A stretch of 47,459 nt of DNA, from the IMG/VR virus record IMGVR_UViG_3300045988_079530, positions 1-47,459 of that record; one strand, written 5' to 3'. Made by a program: the position numbers and the translations under genes. Within the stretch, counting starts at the first letter, position 1. Each line of letters begins with the position of its first letter. The DNA comes from a virus. The notes under the pieces are model-generated. The model was not told the origin of the DNA. It did no database searches and worked only from the letters and a program-made list of their open reading frames with translations. Shown here piece after piece: positions 2,298-37,260 of this stretch.

Positions 2298-2555
2298 TTA
2301 TATAAAATATCTAGCTAAAGGAGTAGCACAAAAAGCACACAAAACATATTCCCCGGTTCCGGTTACACAGGAAAAAACAACTGAAATAATTAAGCAGATC
2401 CACCAGCACAAGCAGAAGTCACAGCTAAAAAGATCAGATATTATTTTAGGGGAATATACCTGTATCTTTTCCCTTATTCCTACTTTGGTAATAAACAACA
2501 CTATCCAGCAAGTAATTAATGCTATAATAATAGCAGCACAAAGAAATTCTTTCAT
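2298..2555 (-). CDS. Small Cys-rich integral membrane protein (DUF1360-like SCxFCxxWW motif)
   Basis: 85 aa with 9 Cys and hydrophobic helices (AAIIIALITCWIVLFI, WWICLIISVVF). It overlaps the upstream gene's stop by 4 nt, and GGGAGGAC lies upstream of the ATG. Confidence 0.5.
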   Translation of the reverse strand: MKEFLCAAIIIALITCWIVLFITKVGIREKIQVYSPKIISDLFSCDFCLCWWICLIISVVFSCVTGTGEYVLCAFCATPLARYFI

Positions 2556-4858: not shown

Positions 4859-5977
4859 TTACTCTGCTGCTGCTGCATCCTTAGTGTAAACAGGAGATTC
4901 TTTCGTGTTAGCGATAATAACCTGCTGAGTATCGGCTGCGGCCTCAGAAGCAATTTCTACCTTAATGATAGGGCTTGCAATAGTACTCGGTGCGCTGTTA
5001 TATGCAGTCACTACAGCCACATCTACAGCAAATCCATAATGCTGTTTCAAGTTTCTTGTCATATCCGCTGTAGCAGCCCCGGCAATGGCATTGAAGTCCC
5101 CTACGCTTTCATAGTAGTAAGTACCCACCGGAATATTAATCATCGGAAGGTTTTCTATTCCCCATTCGTGACCAGTACGAGACTTGGTACCTAGCAAGCA
5201 TTCTCTTTCGAACCGGAACAACAAGCCGAGATTTCCATCAGTAACAGCATAAGCCGTTGCGAACTTCTGACTTTCGTTTGTGATTTCATTGGTAAAATGC
5301 AGGATTTTATCAGAGAATTCCAGCTGTTTGTTTACTTCATTGTAAAGCCCCTTTTCTGTCATTTTCCGAATAATACTTTCAATTCCGGCATTACCTACCA
5401 AATGGATCTGACCAAAGTAATCGTTAGCTGCCATAATCGGGTTAATATCTCCGATCACGTTTTCCCGGTTTTTCCAAGCACATTGTACAGCATTACCTGT
5501 TGTCTGATAGTTCAGCTTATCTTTGAAGACCTGCGTCTTTGCTGTACCCAAAGCAGTCGCACACAGGTTATCCAGTTTCTTAGCAAAAGCATAGAGATAC
5601 TTGTTGAACTTAACTTCAAAATCTCGCTGCATGGAAATTTCATTGTTCATATACATAGCCGGAACAATGGTAAAGCCCCAAGACAGAGTAGTGAAGTTAA
5701 TCTGAAACATCTTCGATTCATTTTCGCTATCCGGGATTTCTACGGCTCTTGTGCTACCTATAGAAATTCCCGAATCGTAGTTAATGACAGGGGTTTCAAA
5801 AGTATTTCCGATACTTTCTTCTGCTTTTTTACGCATTTCCGGGGTTAGAATCCCGTTAGGATCATTGCTCTGTTGCATGAATACGTCCAAAGCGCCATAA
5901 CGGCTAGGGCGATACTCATTTTTGTCTAGGTTGCTAGACGCACGCATGTTTTGCATTCTTGTCGCTAGTAAGCTCAT
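4859..5977 (-). CDS. Major capsid protein (putative)
   Basis: 372 aa, directly downstream of a scaffold-like gene and followed by a strong terminator. This is the classic portal-scaffold-capsid order. No family motif was verified. Confidence 0.6.
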   Translation of the reverse strand: MSLLATRMQNMRASSNLDKNEYRPSRYGALDVFMQQSNDPNGILTPEMRKKAEESIGNTFETPVINYDSGISIGSTRAVEIPDSENESKMFQINFTTLSWGFTIVPAMYMNNEISMQRDFEVKFNKYLYAFAKKLDNLCATALGTAKTQVFKDKLNYQTTGNAVQCAWKNRENVIGDINPIMAANDYFGQIHLVGNAGIESIIRKMTEKGLYNEVNKQLEFSDKILHFTNEITNESQKFATAYAVTDGNLGLLFRFERECLLGTKSRTGHEWGIENLPMINIPVGTYYYESVGDFNAIAGAATADMTRNLKQHYGFAVDVAVVTAYNSAPSTIASPIIKVEIASEAAADTQQVIIANTKESPVYTKDAAAAE

Positions 5978-31967: not shown

Positions 31968-32594
31968 CTATTTAATTATTATGCTTTCCACAAAAACGCT
32001 ATCAGTATAAGGATTCTTGGAGACTACATCTGTTTTTATCTCCTTTACTCCATACTTCCACAAAAAACCCAAGAATCGTTTAGGGACTACATGATTAATA
32101 ACAATAATGCTTTCCCGGGTTTTTAGGTCGTATAATAGACTATCTTTTTCCAAGTATATATTAATTGAATGCCATTCGTCAGAGAAACTAGCGGTTTTAA
32201 TCGTATCTATTATTATACTATCAGATCCCTTTTCTTTCAATATCCTTATACTATCTCTAAGAGCTGTAGTGTTCTTATAATAGCTTTCTGTTTTAGCCGT
32301 TATTATGCCATCCAGCCTTTTATTATCTACTTTTAAGGATTCGATTATTTTAGCGTCCTCTGATCTGTATTTTTTATACTGATCCAGCGTAAGATTAAGC
32401 TGTCCAACGGTAGCGGCCTGTAAACTATCTTTTGTTTTATAGCTTTCTACAGATAGTAATAAGGTAGATACATTCTTTCTCTGAATATCCCTTTCCTCCT
32501 TTACCGAGCTTAGTCGGTTAGAAAGAAAAGCAATAATTCCCAGCAAGCAGGCTATTATTGCTATTGCTATTAATACAACTTTTTTCGTTATCAT
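31968..32594 (-). CDS. N-terminally membrane-anchored coiled-coil protein (i-spanin-like, putative)
   Basis: KKVVLIAIAIIACLLGIIAFL is a likely anchor. The gene is last in the holin-amidase cassette and overlaps the amidase stop by 4 nt. Confidence 0.4.
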   Translation of the reverse strand: MITKKVVLIAIAIIACLLGIIAFLSNRLSSVKEERDIQRKNVSTLLLSVESYKTKDSLQAATVGQLNLTLDQYKKYRSEDAKIIESLKVDNKRLDGIITAKTESYYKNTTALRDSIRILKEKGSDSIIIDTIKTASFSDEWHSINIYLEKDSLLYDLKTRESIIVINHVVPKRFLGFLWKYGVKEIKTDVVSKNPYTDSVFVESIIIK

Positions 32595-33178
32595 ACTCTC
32601 AGCATATTAAGAATAGCTTTGTAATGGGCCTCCGCTATTTTTTGCCGGAAATCATTATCCAGCATCTTATAACAATCCTTTTCGTTATCCATGAAGAAAT
32701 TTTCCGTCAGAACAGCAGGACATTTAGTGTGCTTGATAACGTAAAAATCTTCTTCTTTATCCGGATCTCCGTCTGTATAATCGAAACGCATTTTTTCATC
32801 CGGGAAATCAGATTCAAACTGCTTACACAACAGATCAGCATATTCATCGGCTTTTGTGATTCCTCTAGTAGTATAGCATTCCCATCCTGTGCCACCTCCA
32901 GCATTTCCATGAATGCTAATCAATATGCAGTTATCTTTTCCATATTTGTCGCAAAGGATATTAGCTCTTCGACATCTTTCAGACAAAGATACGTCTTCGT
33001 CTTCCGGTACTAATATATAGGATTCTATTTTAACGGCATCTAGCAGTTCTTTCAACCGGTCAGCCAAGTCTCTGTTATACTCCCATTCGAAAAGCTGAAC
33101 ATTTCCATCCCAAACCGGGCTACATTTCCCGGCTGTATTAAATCCGTGACCATTGTCGATAATAATCAATTTTCTCAT
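32591..33178 (-). CDS. N-acetylmuramoyl-L-alanine amidase endolysin (Amidase_3 type)
   Basis: IIIDNGHG, FEWEYN, ILISIHGNAGGG, and VLTENFFMDN (zinc and catalytic positions). Confidence 0.85.
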   Translation of the reverse strand: MRKLIIIDNGHGFNTAGKCSPVWDGNVQLFEWEYNRDLADRLKELLDAVKIESYILVPEDEDVSLSERCRRANILCDKYGKDNCILISIHGNAGGGTGWECYTTRGITKADEYADLLCKQFESDFPDEKMRFDYTDGDPDKEEDFYVIKHTKCPAVLTENFFMDNEKDCYKMLDNDFRQKIAEAHYKAILNMLRV

Positions 33179-33179
33179 A

Positions 33180-33671
33180 TTATTCTTTTTTTGATAGTTC
33201 CTTAGTTATTTGCTCTAAGATCTCTTGTCCCTTTTTCGTAGTAGTACATTGTACTATTTTCTTCACTATCTCCGGGACATCTGCTGCATGGCTCTTCTTT
33301 CTCCGGCTATTCTCAATAACAGAGGATGCTTCTATGGCAATAACAGCTATGCTTCCTAGCAATGTAGCAAACGGCAGCTTGTAAAACGCGAATAAACTTC
33401 CTATCAAATCAAACAATAAGGCGAAAATTAAAACCCTATAATAGTCACTTATTTTAGTGAAGGTTCTTCTGTAGCCTTTACTATCTATCGGCTCTCCTAT
33501 TGCTTTTGCCGTGTTCCTGCCACTACAGAAGTCCACTATATTAGCAACGAAGATAAAAGTCCAGCACAGCAATACTATGGCCATTCTAACTATTAAATAG
33601 TTCATGATTGCTTCCATATCCTGTTTTTCTATTAACTCCCACATATTATTAAAGCCTAACTGGTTAAACAT
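33180..33671 (-). CDS. Holin (phage_holin_4_1/TcdE-like, putative)
   Basis: Three hydrophobic helices and IEASSVIENSRR, the SxxEN-type motif. It lies immediately upstream of the amidase. Confidence 0.6.
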   Translation of the reverse strand: MFNQLGFNNMWELIEKQDMEAIMNYLIVRMAIVLLCWTFIFVANIVDFCSGRNTAKAIGEPIDSKGYRRTFTKISDYYRVLIFALLFDLIGSLFAFYKLPFATLLGSIAVIAIEASSVIENSRRKKSHAADVPEIVKKIVQCTTTKKGQEILEQITKELSKKE

Positions 33672-33684
33672 ATACTCTACTTCG

Positions 33685-33715
33685 CAAAGATATTGTTTTT
33701 TTTTCGCAAAGCAAA
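33685..33715 (-). promoter_or_regulatory. Bacteroidota-type promoter (TTTG-N19-TATCTTTG) ahead of the lysis cassette
   Basis: Minus-strand read in the 76-bp gap. Confidence 0.5.
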
Positions 33716-33747: not shown

Positions 33748-34218
33748 TCAATACTTTTCCCAGCTAACTTTAATATCCATACCCATTACATCAGCTAGCC
33801 ATCTGTTGAAGATCTTACCCGCATAACCATCCGGATCAGCTGCATCGGCATAAGCCTGCTTAACGCAATCTACTTCGGTTTTTAATGATATTCCGTAATA
33901 GTCAGCATAGGCCATATTAGCAGCGTAAGTAATATCTCCCCAAGTTACCTTTTCGGGCTTGGTTAAGTTTAGCTTTTCAAAAGCTCCTATTACATCATCT
34001 ACAGACCAGCTGTGATTTGCTTCTCCGTGGGAATTATTTTTCATCAGCTTGCTAGCCCATACTGCCAGCTTATCAGAAAAATGCTCTCCGTACTTCTTCT
34101 TATACTTATCGTATTCCGGATCATCCCAAAATTCCTTTTCTTCCTTTCCTTCTTCATCTTCCTGTTTATTGTAAGACTTATCTTCATGTCTTACAATTAT
34201 ATATTTTAATCTTTTCAT
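33748..34218 (-). CDS. Hypothetical protein (156 aa)
   Basis: ORF with an acidic N-terminus. Confidence 0.6.
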   Translation of the reverse strand: MKRLKYIIVRHEDKSYNKQEDEEGKEEKEFWDDPEYDKYKKKYGEHFSDKLAVWASKLMKNNSHGEANHSWSVDDVIGAFEKLNLTKPEKVTWGDITYAANMAYADYYGISLKTEVDCVKQAYADAADPDGYAGKIFNRWLADVMGMDIKVSWEKY

Positions 34219-34221
34219 AAT

Positions 34222-34482
34222 CTAGGATTTTATTTCTTTGTAAAGTTTGGTTATAATATCCTTCATCTCTTTTACAGATTCTTCCAGCCCAATAAGACGC
34301 TGTTCGTTTTCCTGCTTTGCTCGGATCTCCGGGTTAAGATCTGCCAGCATATTTGTAGTTTTATCTAGATCCTCTTTAGCTTTATCTACTCCGCTTAGAT
34401 ACTGCTCTAGACTTCCTTTCTTTGCCTCCAGCTCTCTAATTATCCCGTCTTTATCTTGTAGATAGTACCAAGTCTCCAGCAT
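34222..34482 (-). CDS. Hypothetical coiled-coil protein (86 aa)
   Basis: ORF overlapping the upstream gene by 32 nt. Confidence 0.45.
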   Translation of the reverse strand: MLETWYYLQDKDGIIRELEAKKGSLEQYLSGVDKAKEDLDKTTNMLADLNPEIRAKQENEQRLIGLEESVKEMKDIITKLYKEIKS

Positions 34483-34693
34483 AAGCTATTGACATGCTAT
34501 CGGGTATTGCGTATGTAGCAGTCTTTCCATCTGCTTCGATTGCGACATCTACAACCGTTTTTCCCATAGCCATTGGATTCGTGTTATCAATGTGAGGAAA
34601 TGAAACAGAAGTAACTTTCCCCTGTTTATATGTAACATTCTGTTTATCTAGAATGTATACCGGATAATTTTGTTTAACGTCCTTAAATTGCAT
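34451..34693 (-). CDS. Hypothetical protein (80 aa)
   Basis: ORF. Confidence 0.5.
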   Translation of the reverse strand: MQFKDVKQNYPVYILDKQNVTYKQGKVTSVSFPHIDNTNPMAMGKTVVDVAIEADGKTATYAIPDSMSIAYAGDLVLSTR

Positions 34694-34702
34694 AACTATT
34701 AA

Positions 34703-34746
34703 ATTTAAAGTAAACAGCCGGGGAGGAATATTAATACCTTCCCGGC
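34703..34746 (-). terminator. Hairpin terminator closing the Cys-rich gene pair
   Basis: 11-bp stem AGCCGGGGAGG/CCTTCCCGGCT with one mismatch, followed by GUUUACUUUAAAUUU. Confidence 0.5.
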
Positions 34747-34757
34747 TTAAATTAAGA

Positions 34758-35171
34758 CTAAGCTGCCACTAGAGCAATAGTAAGGGAATCATTAATAACA
34801 TACCCGTGAGCGCATCCTTTACTATCGATACAGGTCGGAGTTTGAATACGTCCGGTAGATGTTATATTAACAGAGGCCGGAAGAGATGTTTGTCCTTGGA
34901 AAGCTACTTCAAATCTTTCCGTGAATGTTATAGGGGTTGCATTACAGCAATTACCCGGGGTAAGGACAAGAATCTGAGCTGTTATCGGGACAAATACCGT
35001 GCTACCTACAAGAACAGGTGTTCCGTAAGTATAGGTTACTCCCGGCTGTGTACTTAATTCCTTTGCAGCGCAATATGGCTTGCATAGTTCTTCTTTATAC
35101 GTGGCTAATACTGACAGCTGGTTATTAACCGGAGCAGCAGCAAGCCCTACAGGTGATAAATAAGTAGCCAT
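34758..35171 (-). CDS. Hypothetical beta-rich protein with three Cys pairs (137 aa)
   Basis: CKPYC, GNCCNA, and TCIDSKGCAHG. It has no signal peptide or TM segment, and its G+C is richer than the genome background. Confidence 0.6.
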   Translation of the reverse strand: MATYLSPVGLAAAPVNNQLSVLATYKEELCKPYCAAKELSTQPGVTYTYGTPVLVGSTVFVPITAQILVLTPGNCCNATPITFTERFEVAFQGQTSLPASVNITSTGRIQTPTCIDSKGCAHGYVINDSLTIALVAA

Positions 35172-35195
35172 ATCCTAATTATTAAAGTTAAACAA

Positions 35196-36011
35196 TTAGA
35201 AACCTACACCATTGCATCCGCATCCATTACCGCATCCGCATCCATTTTGCAAACGATAAAAACGCTGAGTAAGTATATCAGTCTGCTCTACCTGAGACAA
35301 CTTAGCCTTCAGATCTTGAATTTCACGAGCTTGATCATCAGATCTAAATGCATTCATTTGATCAATAATACGCTGAGTATTTGCATTTCCGGCATTGATG
35401 ATGTCGCAAGTCTGCTTCTGAGTTTCATAAGAAGAAGCAGCGAATCCCTGCGTGATAGCCTGTCCGAGATCTCTCTGACCATTTCTCAGATCGTTGGTCT
35501 GATGGCAGATCGCCAGCTGGTTCTGATAGCCCTGTTCCAAAATTGCTTTCTGTGTTCCACAGCAGCAGTCCTTAATGGCTTGGATCACGTTGCAGTCTCC
35601 CATGTTTACAGCGTTAATAACTCTTTCAGCTGAGAAACCAACCTGTCCGCCAACGGTTGCGATGGCCTGTTTCAAATCGCAGCAACACTGCTGAAGCGTG
35701 TTAAAGTCGCAGTTAAGGTTCTGAGCCAGTTGCTGTGTAGCTGAGAAATTATCCCGAATAGCCTCACGCAACAGGTTGGTGTTCTGATTCTGCTGTGCTT
35801 GGTCTTGCAGCAAAGAAAATTCAGTTCCTACACCGTTACCAAATCCGTTACCGTAACCGTTCCAGCCTCTGCCACCCAATAAAAGCAGCAACAAGAACCA
35901 CATACCATTGTTTCCACCAAAACCGTTGTTCATGCTATTAAGCAATGCGGCTTCGCTCAAACCATTATTGCCATTGTCGCAACAATAGATTTTTTCCATA
36001 CAATCACTCAT
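35196..36011 (-). CDS. Hypothetical Cys-, Gly/Asn- and Gln-rich protein with one hydrophobic segment (271 aa)
   Basis: 17 Cys by my count: CMEKIYCC, two copies of C-x8/9-CCC, and C-terminal NGCGCGNGCGCNGVGF. The hydrophobic segment is MWFLLLLLLGG, flanked by G/N/aromatic repeats. Confidence 0.6.
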   Translation of the reverse strand: MSDCMEKIYCCDNGNNGLSEAALLNSMNNGFGGNNGMWFLLLLLLGGRGWNGYGNGFGNGVGTEFSLLQDQAQQNQNTNLLREAIRDNFSATQQLAQNLNCDFNTLQQCCCDLKQAIATVGGQVGFSAERVINAVNMGDCNVIQAIKDCCCGTQKAILEQGYQNQLAICHQTNDLRNGQRDLGQAITQGFAASSYETQKQTCDIINAGNANTQRIIDQMNAFRSDDQAREIQDLKAKLSQVEQTDILTQRFYRLQNGCGCGNGCGCNGVGF

Positions 36012-36085
36012 AATTAATGATTTTTTTGCCTTCTTACTGCTTCCGGCATTGCGACTAAGAATTAATTACTTATCTTAGCTGCCAA

Positions 36086-36093
36086 CAAAGTTA
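36086..36093 (-). promoter_or_regulatory. -7 box only (TAACTTTG) upstream of the Cys-rich gene
   Basis: The -7 box matches, but no convincing -33 TTTG lies at 18-21 nt. Confidence 0.25.
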
Positions 36094-36099
36094 TATGTT

Positions 36100-36396
36100 A
36101 TGGAAAATGAAGTAAATAGGACAAAAGTCTCAATCTCAGATAGAGAATCCGAAGTTATTGAATGTTTGTCTCACGGCTTATCAGAAAAAGAAATAGGCGA
36201 GAAGTTATATATCTCGCCTAAAACCGTTAAAAACCATCTGAATAATATCAGAAGAAAACTAGGTGTTCAAAAGAACATTGAAATAATAGCATACTATATT
36301 GCAAATTTGCGCGGAAAGAAATTTGATCCTAAGTTACTCCATGAATACGGAATAAGTATTTTTATTCTTTTCTTAAATATCTGCAAAATAGAATGA
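36100..36396 (+). CDS. LuxR/GerE-family helix-turn-helix regulator (stand-alone HTH, 98 aa)
   Basis: SDRESEVIECLSHGLSEKEIGEKLYISPKTVKNHLNNIRRKLGV. This is the only credible plus-strand gene. Confidence 0.8.
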   Translation: MENEVNRTKVSISDRESEVIECLSHGLSEKEIGEKLYISPKTVKNHLNNIRRKLGVQKNIEIIAYYIANLRGKKFDPKLLHEYGISIFILFLNICKIE

Positions 36397-36745
36397 TCCT
36401 TTTTATCACTTTATATGCTTTTACAGCAAATAACCAGCATAAAACAGAACAAAGACTTATTAATATTAGCATTTTAATTCCATAAGAAAAATCGATTAAC
36501 TTAGTTCTAATAAATAGATTTACCATATGATTAACCATTAGGCAATATACACTTAATTTATACCATTTACACATTTTCCTACTATGTATCAAAATATAAA
36601 TTAGCATTATCAAAGGATGTCCTGTAATATTAGAAAAAGCCCAATATAAAAAAGTCTTTGTACTACCATTTAAAAGTAATACCCCATGTATCAGTGACAC
36701 AAAAGCACAGATAAACGGGGTATATAGCTTTATAAATTTATACAT
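36362..36745 (-). CDS. Polytopic membrane protein (~127 aa)
   Basis: The likely start is MYKFIKLYTPF at 36745, followed by about four hydrophobic helices. The 3' end overlaps the LuxR 3' end convergently by 35 nt. Confidence 0.5.
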   Translation of the reverse strand: MYKFIKLYTPFICAFVSLIHGVLLLNGSTKTFLYWAFSNITGHPLIMLIYILIHSRKMCKWYKLSVYCLMVNHMVNLFIRTKLIDFSYGIKMLILISLCSVLCWLFAVKAYKVIKRIILFCRYLRKE

Positions 36746-36746
36746 A

Positions 36747-36908
36747 TCAGAAGTTGTTTCCTTCTCCCGGCAAAGGTACTTCGCTGTTTTCGTTTTTATC
36801 GCCAGTTGGCTGCGGAGTAGCCGCAATAACTTCATCGATCTTAGCAATAGCCTCATCGTACTTTCCGGCCTTAATCAACTCTTTAGCTTCTTTCAATTTT
36901 TCTACCAT
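36747..36908 (-). CDS. Possible small ORF (53 aa)
   Basis: MVEKLKEAKELIKAGKYDEAIAKIDEVIAATPQPTGDKNENSEVPLPGEGNNF. Its stop lies 1 nt upstream of the next gene's ATG (TGATATG). Confidence 0.4.
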   Translation of the reverse strand: MVEKLKEAKELIKAGKYDEAIAKIDEVIAATPQPTGDKNENSEVPLPGEGNNF

Positions 36909-36933: not shown

Positions 36934-37260
36934 TTATTCGACCAAAAGATCCTGCATATACATTGCTTGCGCTGCATTCCAGCTGTTAGCAGACATCATC
37001 TTTTCAAAGGCTTCCGGCTTAATCTTATCAAAGGCCGGGATCTCGATCTCTCTGTTGGCTTCCGCATCAATGATCTTAATCTGTTCCTTCTCAGTCTTCT
37101 CGGATTCTTTAGTCTGCTCGACAAATCCGTTGAAATCATCTGCTACTTTTTTTAAAGCTCGTACTGCCTTAATTACTTTGTACTTATCCGCTGTTTCCAG
37201 CCCATCCAGCTTAGATGCACAGGCTACCGCGTAGCCTTGATTCAATTCAAATACCTTCAT
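36934..37260 (-). CDS. Hypothetical protein (108 aa)
   Basis: ORF. Confidence 0.55.
   Translation of the reverse strand: MKVFELNQGYAVACASKLDGLETADKYKVIKAVRALKKVADDFNGFVEQTKESEKTEKEQIKIIDAEANREIEIPAFDKIKPEAFEKMMSANSWNAAQAMYMQDLLVE

Follow-up and report, generated by a model that had tools for sequence, protein, structure and literature searches.

A late-gene cassette of Bacteroidales phages, centered on two adjacent minus-strand genes for cysteine-rich proteins, is described here from a 47,459-nucleotide stretch of viral DNA (IMG/VR record IMGVR_UViG_3300045988_079530, positions 1 to 47,459, hereafter the window), which is essentially one phage genome encoded on the minus strand in the order head, tail, A/B region, lysis cassette and replication genes. 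The two genes, which we call A (35196..36011, minus strand, 271 amino acids, 17 Cys) and B (34758..35171, minus strand, 137 amino acids, 6 Cys), belong to a cassette of the order [small helix-turn-helix (HTH) gene]-A-[B or B']-C-D that is conserved among relatives and appears to be horizontally mobile. We find that the Cys tail at the C-terminus of A goes together with a small partner gene, B or B', that a terminator-like hairpin is conserved between this pair and gene C, and that the cassette is linked to lysis genes across several genome architectures. We tentatively propose, as a possible account and not yet a probable one, that A is a membrane-anchored helical stalk, capped by B, which acts on the host cell envelope late in infection in connection with lysis.

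Results

The cysteine tail of A and its partner gene

Gene neighborhoods were mapped at 131 loci drawn from IMG/VR, GTDB genomes, ENA/Logan contigs and GenBank phages. The carriers comprise phages of ~50 kb with siphovirus-type tail genes, crAss-like phages of the Steigviridae, Suoliviridae and Intestiviridae, Segatella copri prophages in isolate genomes with an integrase nearby, and the cultured Bacteroides uniformis phage C3_41T2LP. One of the S. copri prophages is that of HDE04, and the cassette products of C3_41T2LP are WLZ21182.1 (A), WLZ21181.1 (B'), WLZ21180.1 (C) and WLZ21178.1 (D). Among loci with at least 4 kb of sequence downstream of A, C was found in 97 of 100 and D, as DUF7841 or a diverged form of it, in 84 of 100; B, whose presence was scored with full-length B queries only, was found in 74 of 119 loci.

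The presence of B follows the way in which A ends. When A carries the Cys tail, B is present at 74 loci and absent from four, and when A lacks the tail, B is present at none and absent from 41 (Fisher's exact P = 1e-27, without phylogenetic correction). Both states are represented in several separate lineages and also inside a single cluster of A at 60% identity. Three of the four Cys-tail loci without B hold in the same slot B', a different small beta-rich Cys-containing protein whose copies in phages cr1_1 and cr271_1 belong to phrog_31654, and the fourth has lost B; the Cys tail thus stands with B or B' at 77 of 78 loci. Homology between B and B' was ruled out (hhalign probability 0.1%). 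At loci without B, A ends in a poly-Thr sequence, ...LIAALKTTTTTT(A), and has 7.9 Cys outside the tail, compared with 11.0.

In P0330, a natural protein of the Rosetta-stone type, a B domain is joined directly to a coiled coil rich in Cys. Other joined forms were also seen: the metagenomic proteins P0250, P0284 and P0290 are in-frame deletion fusions of the N-terminal part of A with the C-terminal two-thirds of B, and represent either natural deletion variants or assembly chimeras, while P0282 is a chimeric sequence that joins the N-terminus of B to the coiled coil of C.

From the co-occurrence of tail and B, the P0330 fusion and the location of the cysteines of B at one end of its predicted sheet (described below), we infer that B docks on the C-terminal tail of A through clustered thiols. 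For this contact a metal-thiolate bridge is no less plausible than disulfides, since export signals are missing from both A and B and the phages infect strict anaerobes. A sequence-only reading of the pair had likened it to disulfide-cross-linked, self-assembling proteins such as spore appendage or exosporium subunits; the notion of a thiol linkage, now placed between A and B, gains from the co-occurrence of tail and partner, whereas homology to the Ena appendage proteins found no support.

Sequence organization and predicted structure of A and B

Both open reading frames (ORFs) are present with the Cys counts, motifs and Leu6 segment that the sequence-only reading had described. Cysteine makes up 6.3% of A, as against 1.17% across the other window proteins (binomial P = 3e-8), and 4.4% of B (P = 0.006). 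Residues C10, C11, C109-111, C149-151, C169 and C202 of A are retained in at least 92% of 97 homologues, and C30, C34, C76 and C114 of B in at least 94% of 68; because they are conserved in this way, the cysteines of the two proteins are not incidental.

Gly, Asn and Gln each account for 11-12% of A, and helix is predicted for most of its length. The protein is conserved from Met1 (EKIYCCD, with E6, K7, I8, C10 and C11 in at least 90%), and its N-terminal motif, residues 1-12 (MSDCMEKIYCCD, 35976..36011, minus strand like all features of A), holds C4-x5-C10C11. This motif is followed by a Gly/Asn/Met-rich region (the first 75 residues of family members contain 7.7 Met on average) with a hydrophobic stretch, which in the window includes Leu6 (residues 36-47, GMWFLLLLLLGG, 35871..35906), lies within Gly/Asn/aromatic low-complexity flanks and is followed by Arg. 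An amphipathic helix block comes next and carries both CCC motifs, C-x7-CCC at residues 100-112 (NCDFNTLQQCCCD, 35676..35714) and C-x8-CCC at residues 139-152 (DCNVIQAIKDCCCG, 35556..35597), which are spaced 39 residues apart; a helical periodicity of 3.5-3.6 residues peaks at residues 82-145. The CCC of the first motif is present in 99% of close homologues and lost from crAss-like versions, and C149-C151 of the second are invariant, crAss-like versions included. A helix of ~75 residues then leads to the Gly/Cys tail with its Cys-X-Cys (CXC) motifs (residues 256-271, NGCGCGNGCGCNGVGF, 35199..35246), the putative docking site for B. The tail coding sequence contains at 35214-35246 two perfect 15-nt copies with an 18-nt period (NGCGCG twice), and the variation of tail length and CXC number among homologues suggests that in-frame repeat expansion and contraction alter the tail.

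B carries its cysteines in the groups CKPYC, NCC and CIDSKGC and is predicted to be all-beta, with long strands. Its N-terminus is a conserved motif (P7, G9, L10, A13, P14, V15) without a basic n-region, its first Cys is residue 30, and neither a signal peptide nor a lipobox was found in it. The AlphaFold2 model of B (predicted local distance difference test, pLDDT, 83.6; predicted template modeling score, pTM, 0.75) is a meander of five long antiparallel strands, in which the six cysteines, as read from the secondary-structure string and not from coordinates, fall at strand ends and hairpin loops at one end of the sheet. For A, an AlphaFold2 run with 97 homologues was unusable (pLDDT 44.7); the failed monomer model is consistent with an obligate oligomer and proves nothing.

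Neither protein matched a characterized family in Pfam, NCBIfam or PADLOC, in keeping with the sequence-only reading, which could name no family for them. A belongs to phrog_16490, a PHROG of unknown function (E = 1.7e-25 over residues 25-241, and E = 1.8e-50 for its cr116_1 homologue), and B matched no PHROG family. Homologues form 3,770 metagenomic clusters at 90% identity for A and 681 for B, none of which has an informative name or a Pfam domain. When B was searched exhaustively by profile, 122 representative clusters were recovered, all of small stand-alone proteins; a further match in the 2,615-residue beta-helix/RHS protein P0359 (E = 3e-4) looks spurious. Foldseek searches with the B model against the PDB and BFVD returned no match at E <= 0.001 (TM-score <= 0.30), hidden Markov model (HMM) scans of A with Pfam and PHROGs detected no fiber domain, and PADLOC defense models matched none of A, B and D and gave only coiled-coil noise for C. 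The relationships proposed earlier on grounds of composition also fell away: A, at 271 residues and 6.3% Cys, resembles a metallothionein only in its last 16 residues (two CXC motifs) and has no Pfam metallothionein match, and an Ena/exosporium identity found no support, with no DUF3992 match in Pfam at E <= 1 and no PDB match of the B model above a TM-score of 0.30.

Profile searches of the PDB gave nothing significant for B, C or D, and the best matches for A were coronavirus heptad repeat 1 (HR1) constructs (E = 0.1-2 over ~55 residues). This similarity is only compositional and of heptad type, and a class I fusion or spike protein was rejected; heptad similarity also explains why crAss-like homologues of A bear the labels 'spike protein/glycoprotein' and 'outer capsid protein/viral fiber'. 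More generally, the GenBank labels on crAss-like homologues, including 'RNA polymerase sigma factor' for D, reflect sub-threshold coiled-coil similarity and should not be trusted. In the literature library that was searched, nothing relevant turned up on the cassette families, their peptides or the carrier phages.

Transcriptional punctuation and codon usage

The promoter and terminator that the sequence-only reading had placed around the pair are both present as sequence features. A Bacteroides-type -7 box, TAACTTTG (36086..36093, minus strand), lies ~80 nt 5' of the ATG of A and abuts the start of a divergent LuxR gene, and a hairpin (34716-34747, a 10-bp stem with one internal mismatch) with a T-rich tract (34700..34747 together, minus strand) lies between B and C and is terminator- or attenuator-like. 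The lone box is weak evidence, because 69 TANNTTTG sites occur in the window, as against 52.6 +/- 6.9 expected by chance, and the 81-nt segment that holds the hairpin (34690-34770) folds at -19 kcal/mol, which is unremarkable alone (z = -1.5).

Comparison among relatives is more telling. Of 64 unique regions 5' of A homologues, 21 contain TAnnTTTG between -47 and -93, and in many lineages a hairpin that closes the preceding gene is followed, 5' of A, by an AT-rich region. A GC-rich hairpin with a run of T's separates A/B from C in nearly every lineage, its sequence being lineage-specific. When a region was called terminator-like if its best local hairpin reached -12 kcal/mol or lower and at least five T fell within the 10 nt that followed, 36 of the 49 unique regions between A/B and C qualified (73%; median -23.5 kcal/mol), compared with 20 of 216 control same-strand intergenic regions from the same loci (9%; median -11.0 kcal/mol). 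On this in silico comparison A(+B) looks like a transcription unit of its own, and its conserved bracketing would imply that more of A(+B) is produced than of C, D and the lysis proteins. The earlier description of the pair as self-contained stands for the bracketing, which relatives conserve, and fails in that C and D almost always travel along.

A second TAnnTTTG box (TATCTTTG, 33685-33692, minus strand) lies 14-21 nt 5' of the holin start codon and could provide the lysis genes with their own promoter downstream of the A/B terminator. Scanning the leader and hairpin with Rfam revealed no RNA family, and an invertible promoter or long repeats around the A/B unit were rejected, as only chance-level repeats were seen.

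The composition of the pair does not mark it as foreign. The region has a G+C content of 0.43 compared with 0.366 for the window, and the counts given for it earlier (26/60 at 35581-35640 and 34/60 at 35641-35700) are exact. When we computed the G+C expected for each gene from its own amino-acid composition and the codon usage of the genome, B showed 0.437 observed and 0.437 expected (residual 0.000; G+C at third codon positions, GC3, 0.29), and A had a residual of +0.040 (GC3 0.45), alongside +0.038 for the major capsid gene (4859-5977) and +0.047 for the gene at 36934-37260. With the capsid and scaffold genes as its training set, the codon adaptation index (CAI) ranked D first, A fifth and B 25th of 52 genes. 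Foreign origin of the pair was ruled out on these grounds, amino-acid demand explaining B and the excess in A being the same as that of the capsid gene, and for the same reasons the compositional argument of the sequence-only reading for a 'classic moron signature' fails by that reading's own criteria. Relatives, moreover, carry the pair syntenically, which the sequence-only reading had named as evidence against its case.

Linkage to lysis genes and a candidate membrane anchor

The pair lies between the tail and lysis genes, as had been noted. Gene C (phrog_28898, 34222..34693, minus strand), with an N-terminal beta domain and a C-terminal coiled coil, and gene D (DUF7841, 33748..34218, minus strand, 156 amino acids) follow it, no signal peptide or lipobox being found in either product, and then come a holin-like gene (33180..33671), an Amidase_3 endolysin gene (32591..33178) and a DUF6549/Rz-like spanin candidate (31968..32594), all on the minus strand.

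The cassette adjoins or sits inside lysis genes in at least seven genome architectures. In window-type phages, S. copri prophages and phage PD691P3 it lies 5' of holin-endolysin-spanin genes, a position that in BF486P2 holds only D and an analogue of A, and in a second arrangement it lies directly 3' of holin-endolysin-u-spanin genes. The cassette of cr1_1 stands between holin/Rz-like genes and the endolysin; that of cr116_1 stands 3' of the endolysin with two genes between and is an insertion relative to crAss001; in Dulem virus 40 it comes after the holin; in cr52_1 it lies beside a LysB-like gene; and in C3_41T2LP it is near a PolyVal peptidase gene, among recombination genes.

The slot after the endolysin is occupied, in the window and its relatives, by DUF6549 or by a lipoprotein with a C-terminal transmembrane (TM) segment (u-spanin-like; cluster 12, e.g. 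L065:10635-11027). The DUF6549 protein has an N-terminal TM segment, a coiled coil, a beta-rich C-terminal domain and a weak Rz-like PHROG match, and may be a single-component spanin equivalent; no o-spanin ORF was detectable in the window, including inside or after the Rz-like gene. Since spanin candidates are already present, the cassette is no replacement for a missing canonical step.

The hydrophobic stretch of A resembles a membrane anchor in part. Its uncharged core has a median length of 11 residues across the family (range 11-26), and it extends to 15-21 residues, with Trp flanks, in the three diverged members whose stretch was measured (cr116_1, Dulem virus 40 and C3_41T2LP). Hydropathy in a 19-residue Kyte-Doolittle window (KD19) has a mean best value of 0.94 across the family, below the usual cut-off of 1.6, with 1.73 in C3_41T2LP and a family maximum of 1.75. 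If the stretch inserts in a membrane, an N-out, C-in topology would be favored, because basic residues are commoner after it (0.21 Lys or Arg in the 15 residues before it versus 1.07 after) and the N-tail is acidic; this topology would in turn place the Cys-rich domain in the cytoplasm with the signal-less B, C and D.

Clearer candidate anchors occur in proteins that take the place of A. In cultured phages of B. fragilis and Parabacteroides distasonis, D lies directly 5' of holin-endolysin-DUF6549, and PD691P3 also carries C (hhalign probability 95%). The A-like protein of PD691P3 (226 residues; phrog_9288) shows MADTTEVIYADRDRCCDD at its N-terminus, together with a CCC motif and a hydrophobic stretch of the Gly-zipper type that is 26 residues long, and a 156-residue protein of BF486P2 has a canonical 22-residue TM segment and a CCGCG...GCGCGG tail; in hhalign comparisons both gave local motif matches to A (E ~0.002-0.003).

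Further features of the cassette and its surroundings

A small HTH gene usually lies 5' of A and is either DnaA C-terminal domain-like or, as in the window, a divergent LuxR gene. The window copy (LuxR/GerE-type, 36100..36396, plus strand) is divergent from A, and no other gene of the window lies clearly on the plus strand. A 164-residue multi-TM ORF (36362-36856, minus strand) overlaps its 3' end, and the pair formed by these two genes (clusters 46 and 47) is kept 5' of A in the closest relatives (loci L003, L004 and L080).

Gene C, typically ~160 residues long in relatives, is split in the window into ORFs of 80 and 86 residues by one extra A near 34457 (ACAAGAT versus ACAGAT) and is intact, at 156-158 residues, in three near-identical contigs; the split is due either to an error of sequencing or assembly or to a genuine mutation that inactivates C in the window genome. 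In-frame stops in the A, C and D homologues of cr124_1 point to stop-codon recoding, and in cr52_1 such stops lie in a neighboring gene.

Several diverged copies of D were recognized under other names. Shared sequence motifs, as we read them, identify as DUF7841 an 'RNA polymerase sigma factor/ubiquitin-like protein' of cr52_1 (L136:4144-4743) and an unnamed cr1_1 neighbor (L134:3979-4722), and an 'RNA polymerase sigma factor' of cr130_1 (NC_055901.1 ~61001-61315) is a tblastn match to D. All three have a low-complexity acidic/basic tail, and the sigma-factor labels look wrong. Elsewhere in the window, among head and neck genes, an 85-residue ORF (2298-2555, minus strand) with a hydrophobic N-terminus and nine Cys (10.6%, the window maximum) encodes a second small Cys-rich protein of the same phage.

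Discussion

We favor a role for the cassette at the cell envelope because of its lysis linkage, the anchor features of A and the TM-bearing proteins that stand in the place of A in other phages, and offer the following as a tentative model. A and B would be the most strongly expressed part of the cassette. A would form a helical, probably oligomeric stalk, with its short, aromatic-flanked hydrophobic segment near the N-terminus serving as an anchor, most likely in the host cytoplasmic membrane with the acidic N-tail outward, and its Cys-rich helical domain would remain on the cytoplasmic side along with B, C and D. The CXC tail would dock B via clustered thiols, metal-bridged in the reducing cytoplasm of the anaerobe and possibly converted to disulfides after release, and the complex may assist the holin-endolysin-spanin pathway by acting on the envelope as infection ends.

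Several points weigh against this proposal. In most members, the window included, the hydrophobic stretch runs to only ~11 residues, fewer than a canonical TM helix needs, and the AlphaFold2 model of A was unusable. The phages already have genes for a holin, an endolysin and a spanin candidate, which leaves no obvious gap in the lysis pathway. In the portal/head-morphogenesis arrangement and in cr124_1, the cassette lies away from recognizable lysis genes. Accessory genes commonly insert at module boundaries near lysis genes, and a shared function therefore need not follow from lysis linkage. The PD691P3 and BF486P2 proteins count as analogues of A on grounds of position and architecture only. 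Finally, a virion fiber would likewise be expected to show strong expression and a distal partner that can be exchanged (B, B' or none), and the computed evidence cannot decisively separate action at the envelope from a place on the virion. A further-reaching form of our proposal, distinctly improbable in our estimation, would make A-[B]-C-D an unrecognized envelope machine of Bacteroidales phages, in which a metal-thiolate cluster or disulfide knot caps the CXC tail of the stalk with the novel beta-fold of B and adds a step of host disruption or virion release outside the holin-endolysin-spanin scheme.

The alternative that we take most seriously, while still thinking it unlikely, is a virion appendage or decoration, in which A would be a trimeric helical fiber attached by its conserved N-terminus or via C, B or B' an exchangeable tip on the Cys tail, and C and D chaperones or adaptors, with thiol or metal links that stabilize the tip or mediate adhesion. 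A variable tip, a position after a receptor-binding gene and a design for strong expression speak for it: the N-terminus and core of A are conserved while the C-terminal tip varies, with B, B' or a poly-Thr end without partner, which is the usual pattern of fiber modules; the commonest arrangement has the cassette directly behind the variable receptor-binding gene with which the tail block ends; and putative terminators on both sides are combined with capsid-like codon usage. A cr1_1 gene with tail-fiber PHROG matches follows C, D is faintly like Phage_TAC_18 (E = 0.004), the C-terminal half of C has faint prefoldin-type coiled-coil matches, and B, C and D lack export signals. The cassette is also patchy among crAss-like phages, as a dispensable decoration would be. 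Its occurrence in both siphovirus-like and crAss-like (podovirus) genomes, however, would call for a generic docking site, and hydrophobic, Trp-flanked or TM-like anchors are unusual in fibers. The small HTH regulator directly upstream is atypical of structural genes, the C3_41T2LP cassette stands among recombination genes, a fiber or decoration domain is not detectable, and polar residues are strongly conserved (mean column identity 55%).

We assign little probability to the proposal that A(+B) is a moron, that is, an autonomous unit expressed, for example, from prophages, whose membrane-anchored protein causes superinfection exclusion or modifies the envelope. The conserved promoter-like and terminator-like bracketing of A(+B), the HTH gene of its own upstream, the membrane-type anchor, the presence of the cassette in S. 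copri prophages and its status as an insertion relative to crAss001 would all suit such a unit. Its composition, however, deviates no further than amino-acid demand and capsid-like codon bias account for, its synteny is kept across dozens of diverged relatives (although the position of the cassette differs in other lineages), and C and D lie outside the bracketed unit and yet are obligately co-inherited. Among the carriers, moreover, are crAss-like phages and others that came from plaques or sewage, for which lysogenic conversion has no obvious role.

A two-component, spanin-like fusogen with A as an inner-membrane coiled coil across the periplasm and B as a disulfide-stabilized outer-membrane partner at its C-terminus, as in lambda Rz/Rz1, is highly improbable: the parallel architecture of anchor, helices and a C-terminal tail paired with a small downstream-encoded Cys protein in or beside lysis cassettes, the lack of a detectable o-spanin-like lipoprotein ORF in the window, and weak heptad similarity of A to coronavirus HR1 (E = 0.1) and of C to syntaxin (E = 0.016) recommend it, but B has no signal peptide or lipobox and begins with a conserved motif in place of a leader, the Arg after the hydrophobic stretch favors a cytoplasmic C-terminal domain, u-spanin-like or DUF6549 genes already fill the spanin position of relatives, and many family members have no B. 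The remaining probability belongs to explanations outside those considered here.

Three of the four families of the cassette were catalogued only as of unknown function (phrog_16490, phrog_28898 and DUF7841), and B is in none of the HMM libraries that we searched. What this analysis adds is the definition of the cassette, its conserved internal terminator-like element, the rule by which the tail of A and B (or B') occur together, and the rejection of foreign DNA as the source of the pair. The cassette spans several groups of phages that infect the dominant Bacteroidales of the human gut. If it has a role in lysis or egress, it would supply a new component for a pathway thought to be well understood, in hosts of clinical and ecological importance; if it encodes a virion appendage, the docking of exchangeable tips through Cys or metal would be a new principle of construction. 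Because the co-occurrence of tail and partner is clean, the internal terminator is conserved and carriers are in culture, the question is directly testable.

Several known systems share features with the cassette. The lambdoid morons, such as HK97 gp15 and lambda bor and lom, are likewise promoter-gene-terminator units in the late region, can encode membrane-anchored products and occur in prophages; A and B, in contrast, are not deviant in composition, are conserved in thousands of phages including apparently virulent ones, and are tied to C and D outside the unit. Lambda Rz/Rz1 likewise has helices after an anchor near the N-terminus, a C-terminal pairing with a small Cys-bearing product encoded immediately downstream, a position in or beside the lysis cassette and an involvement of thiol chemistry. 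It differs in that no sequence or profile similarity was found (the Rz-like PHROG being tested on neighboring genes only), B has no lipoprotein signal, the anchor of A is mostly too short and its charge distribution suggests the opposite topology, and the cassette phages have separate spanin candidates, with C and D co-inherited and B optional.

The interchain Cys knots at the ends of coiled coils or fibers, as in collagen III (GPCCG), COMP and matrilin, and the CC connectors of Ena provide a parallel for the CC, CCC and CXC motifs at predicted helix ends of A, which could staple chains together, although there is no DUF3992 match and no Foldseek match of B, the host is a strict anaerobe and the partners have no export signal. 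The cassette departs from fiber modules such as T-even gp37/gp38/gp57A and the phi29 head fiber gp8.5 in having no detectable fiber domain, a TM-like segment near the N-terminus of A and a regulator of its own, and it is known here from its genes alone; we know of no Cys- or CXC-based docking in phage fibers. With these modules it nevertheless shares an N-terminal part that is conserved and a distal end that varies, a separate small protein that would form the tip, accessory genes downstream, a patchy distribution as of a dispensable element, and a helical shaft repeat.

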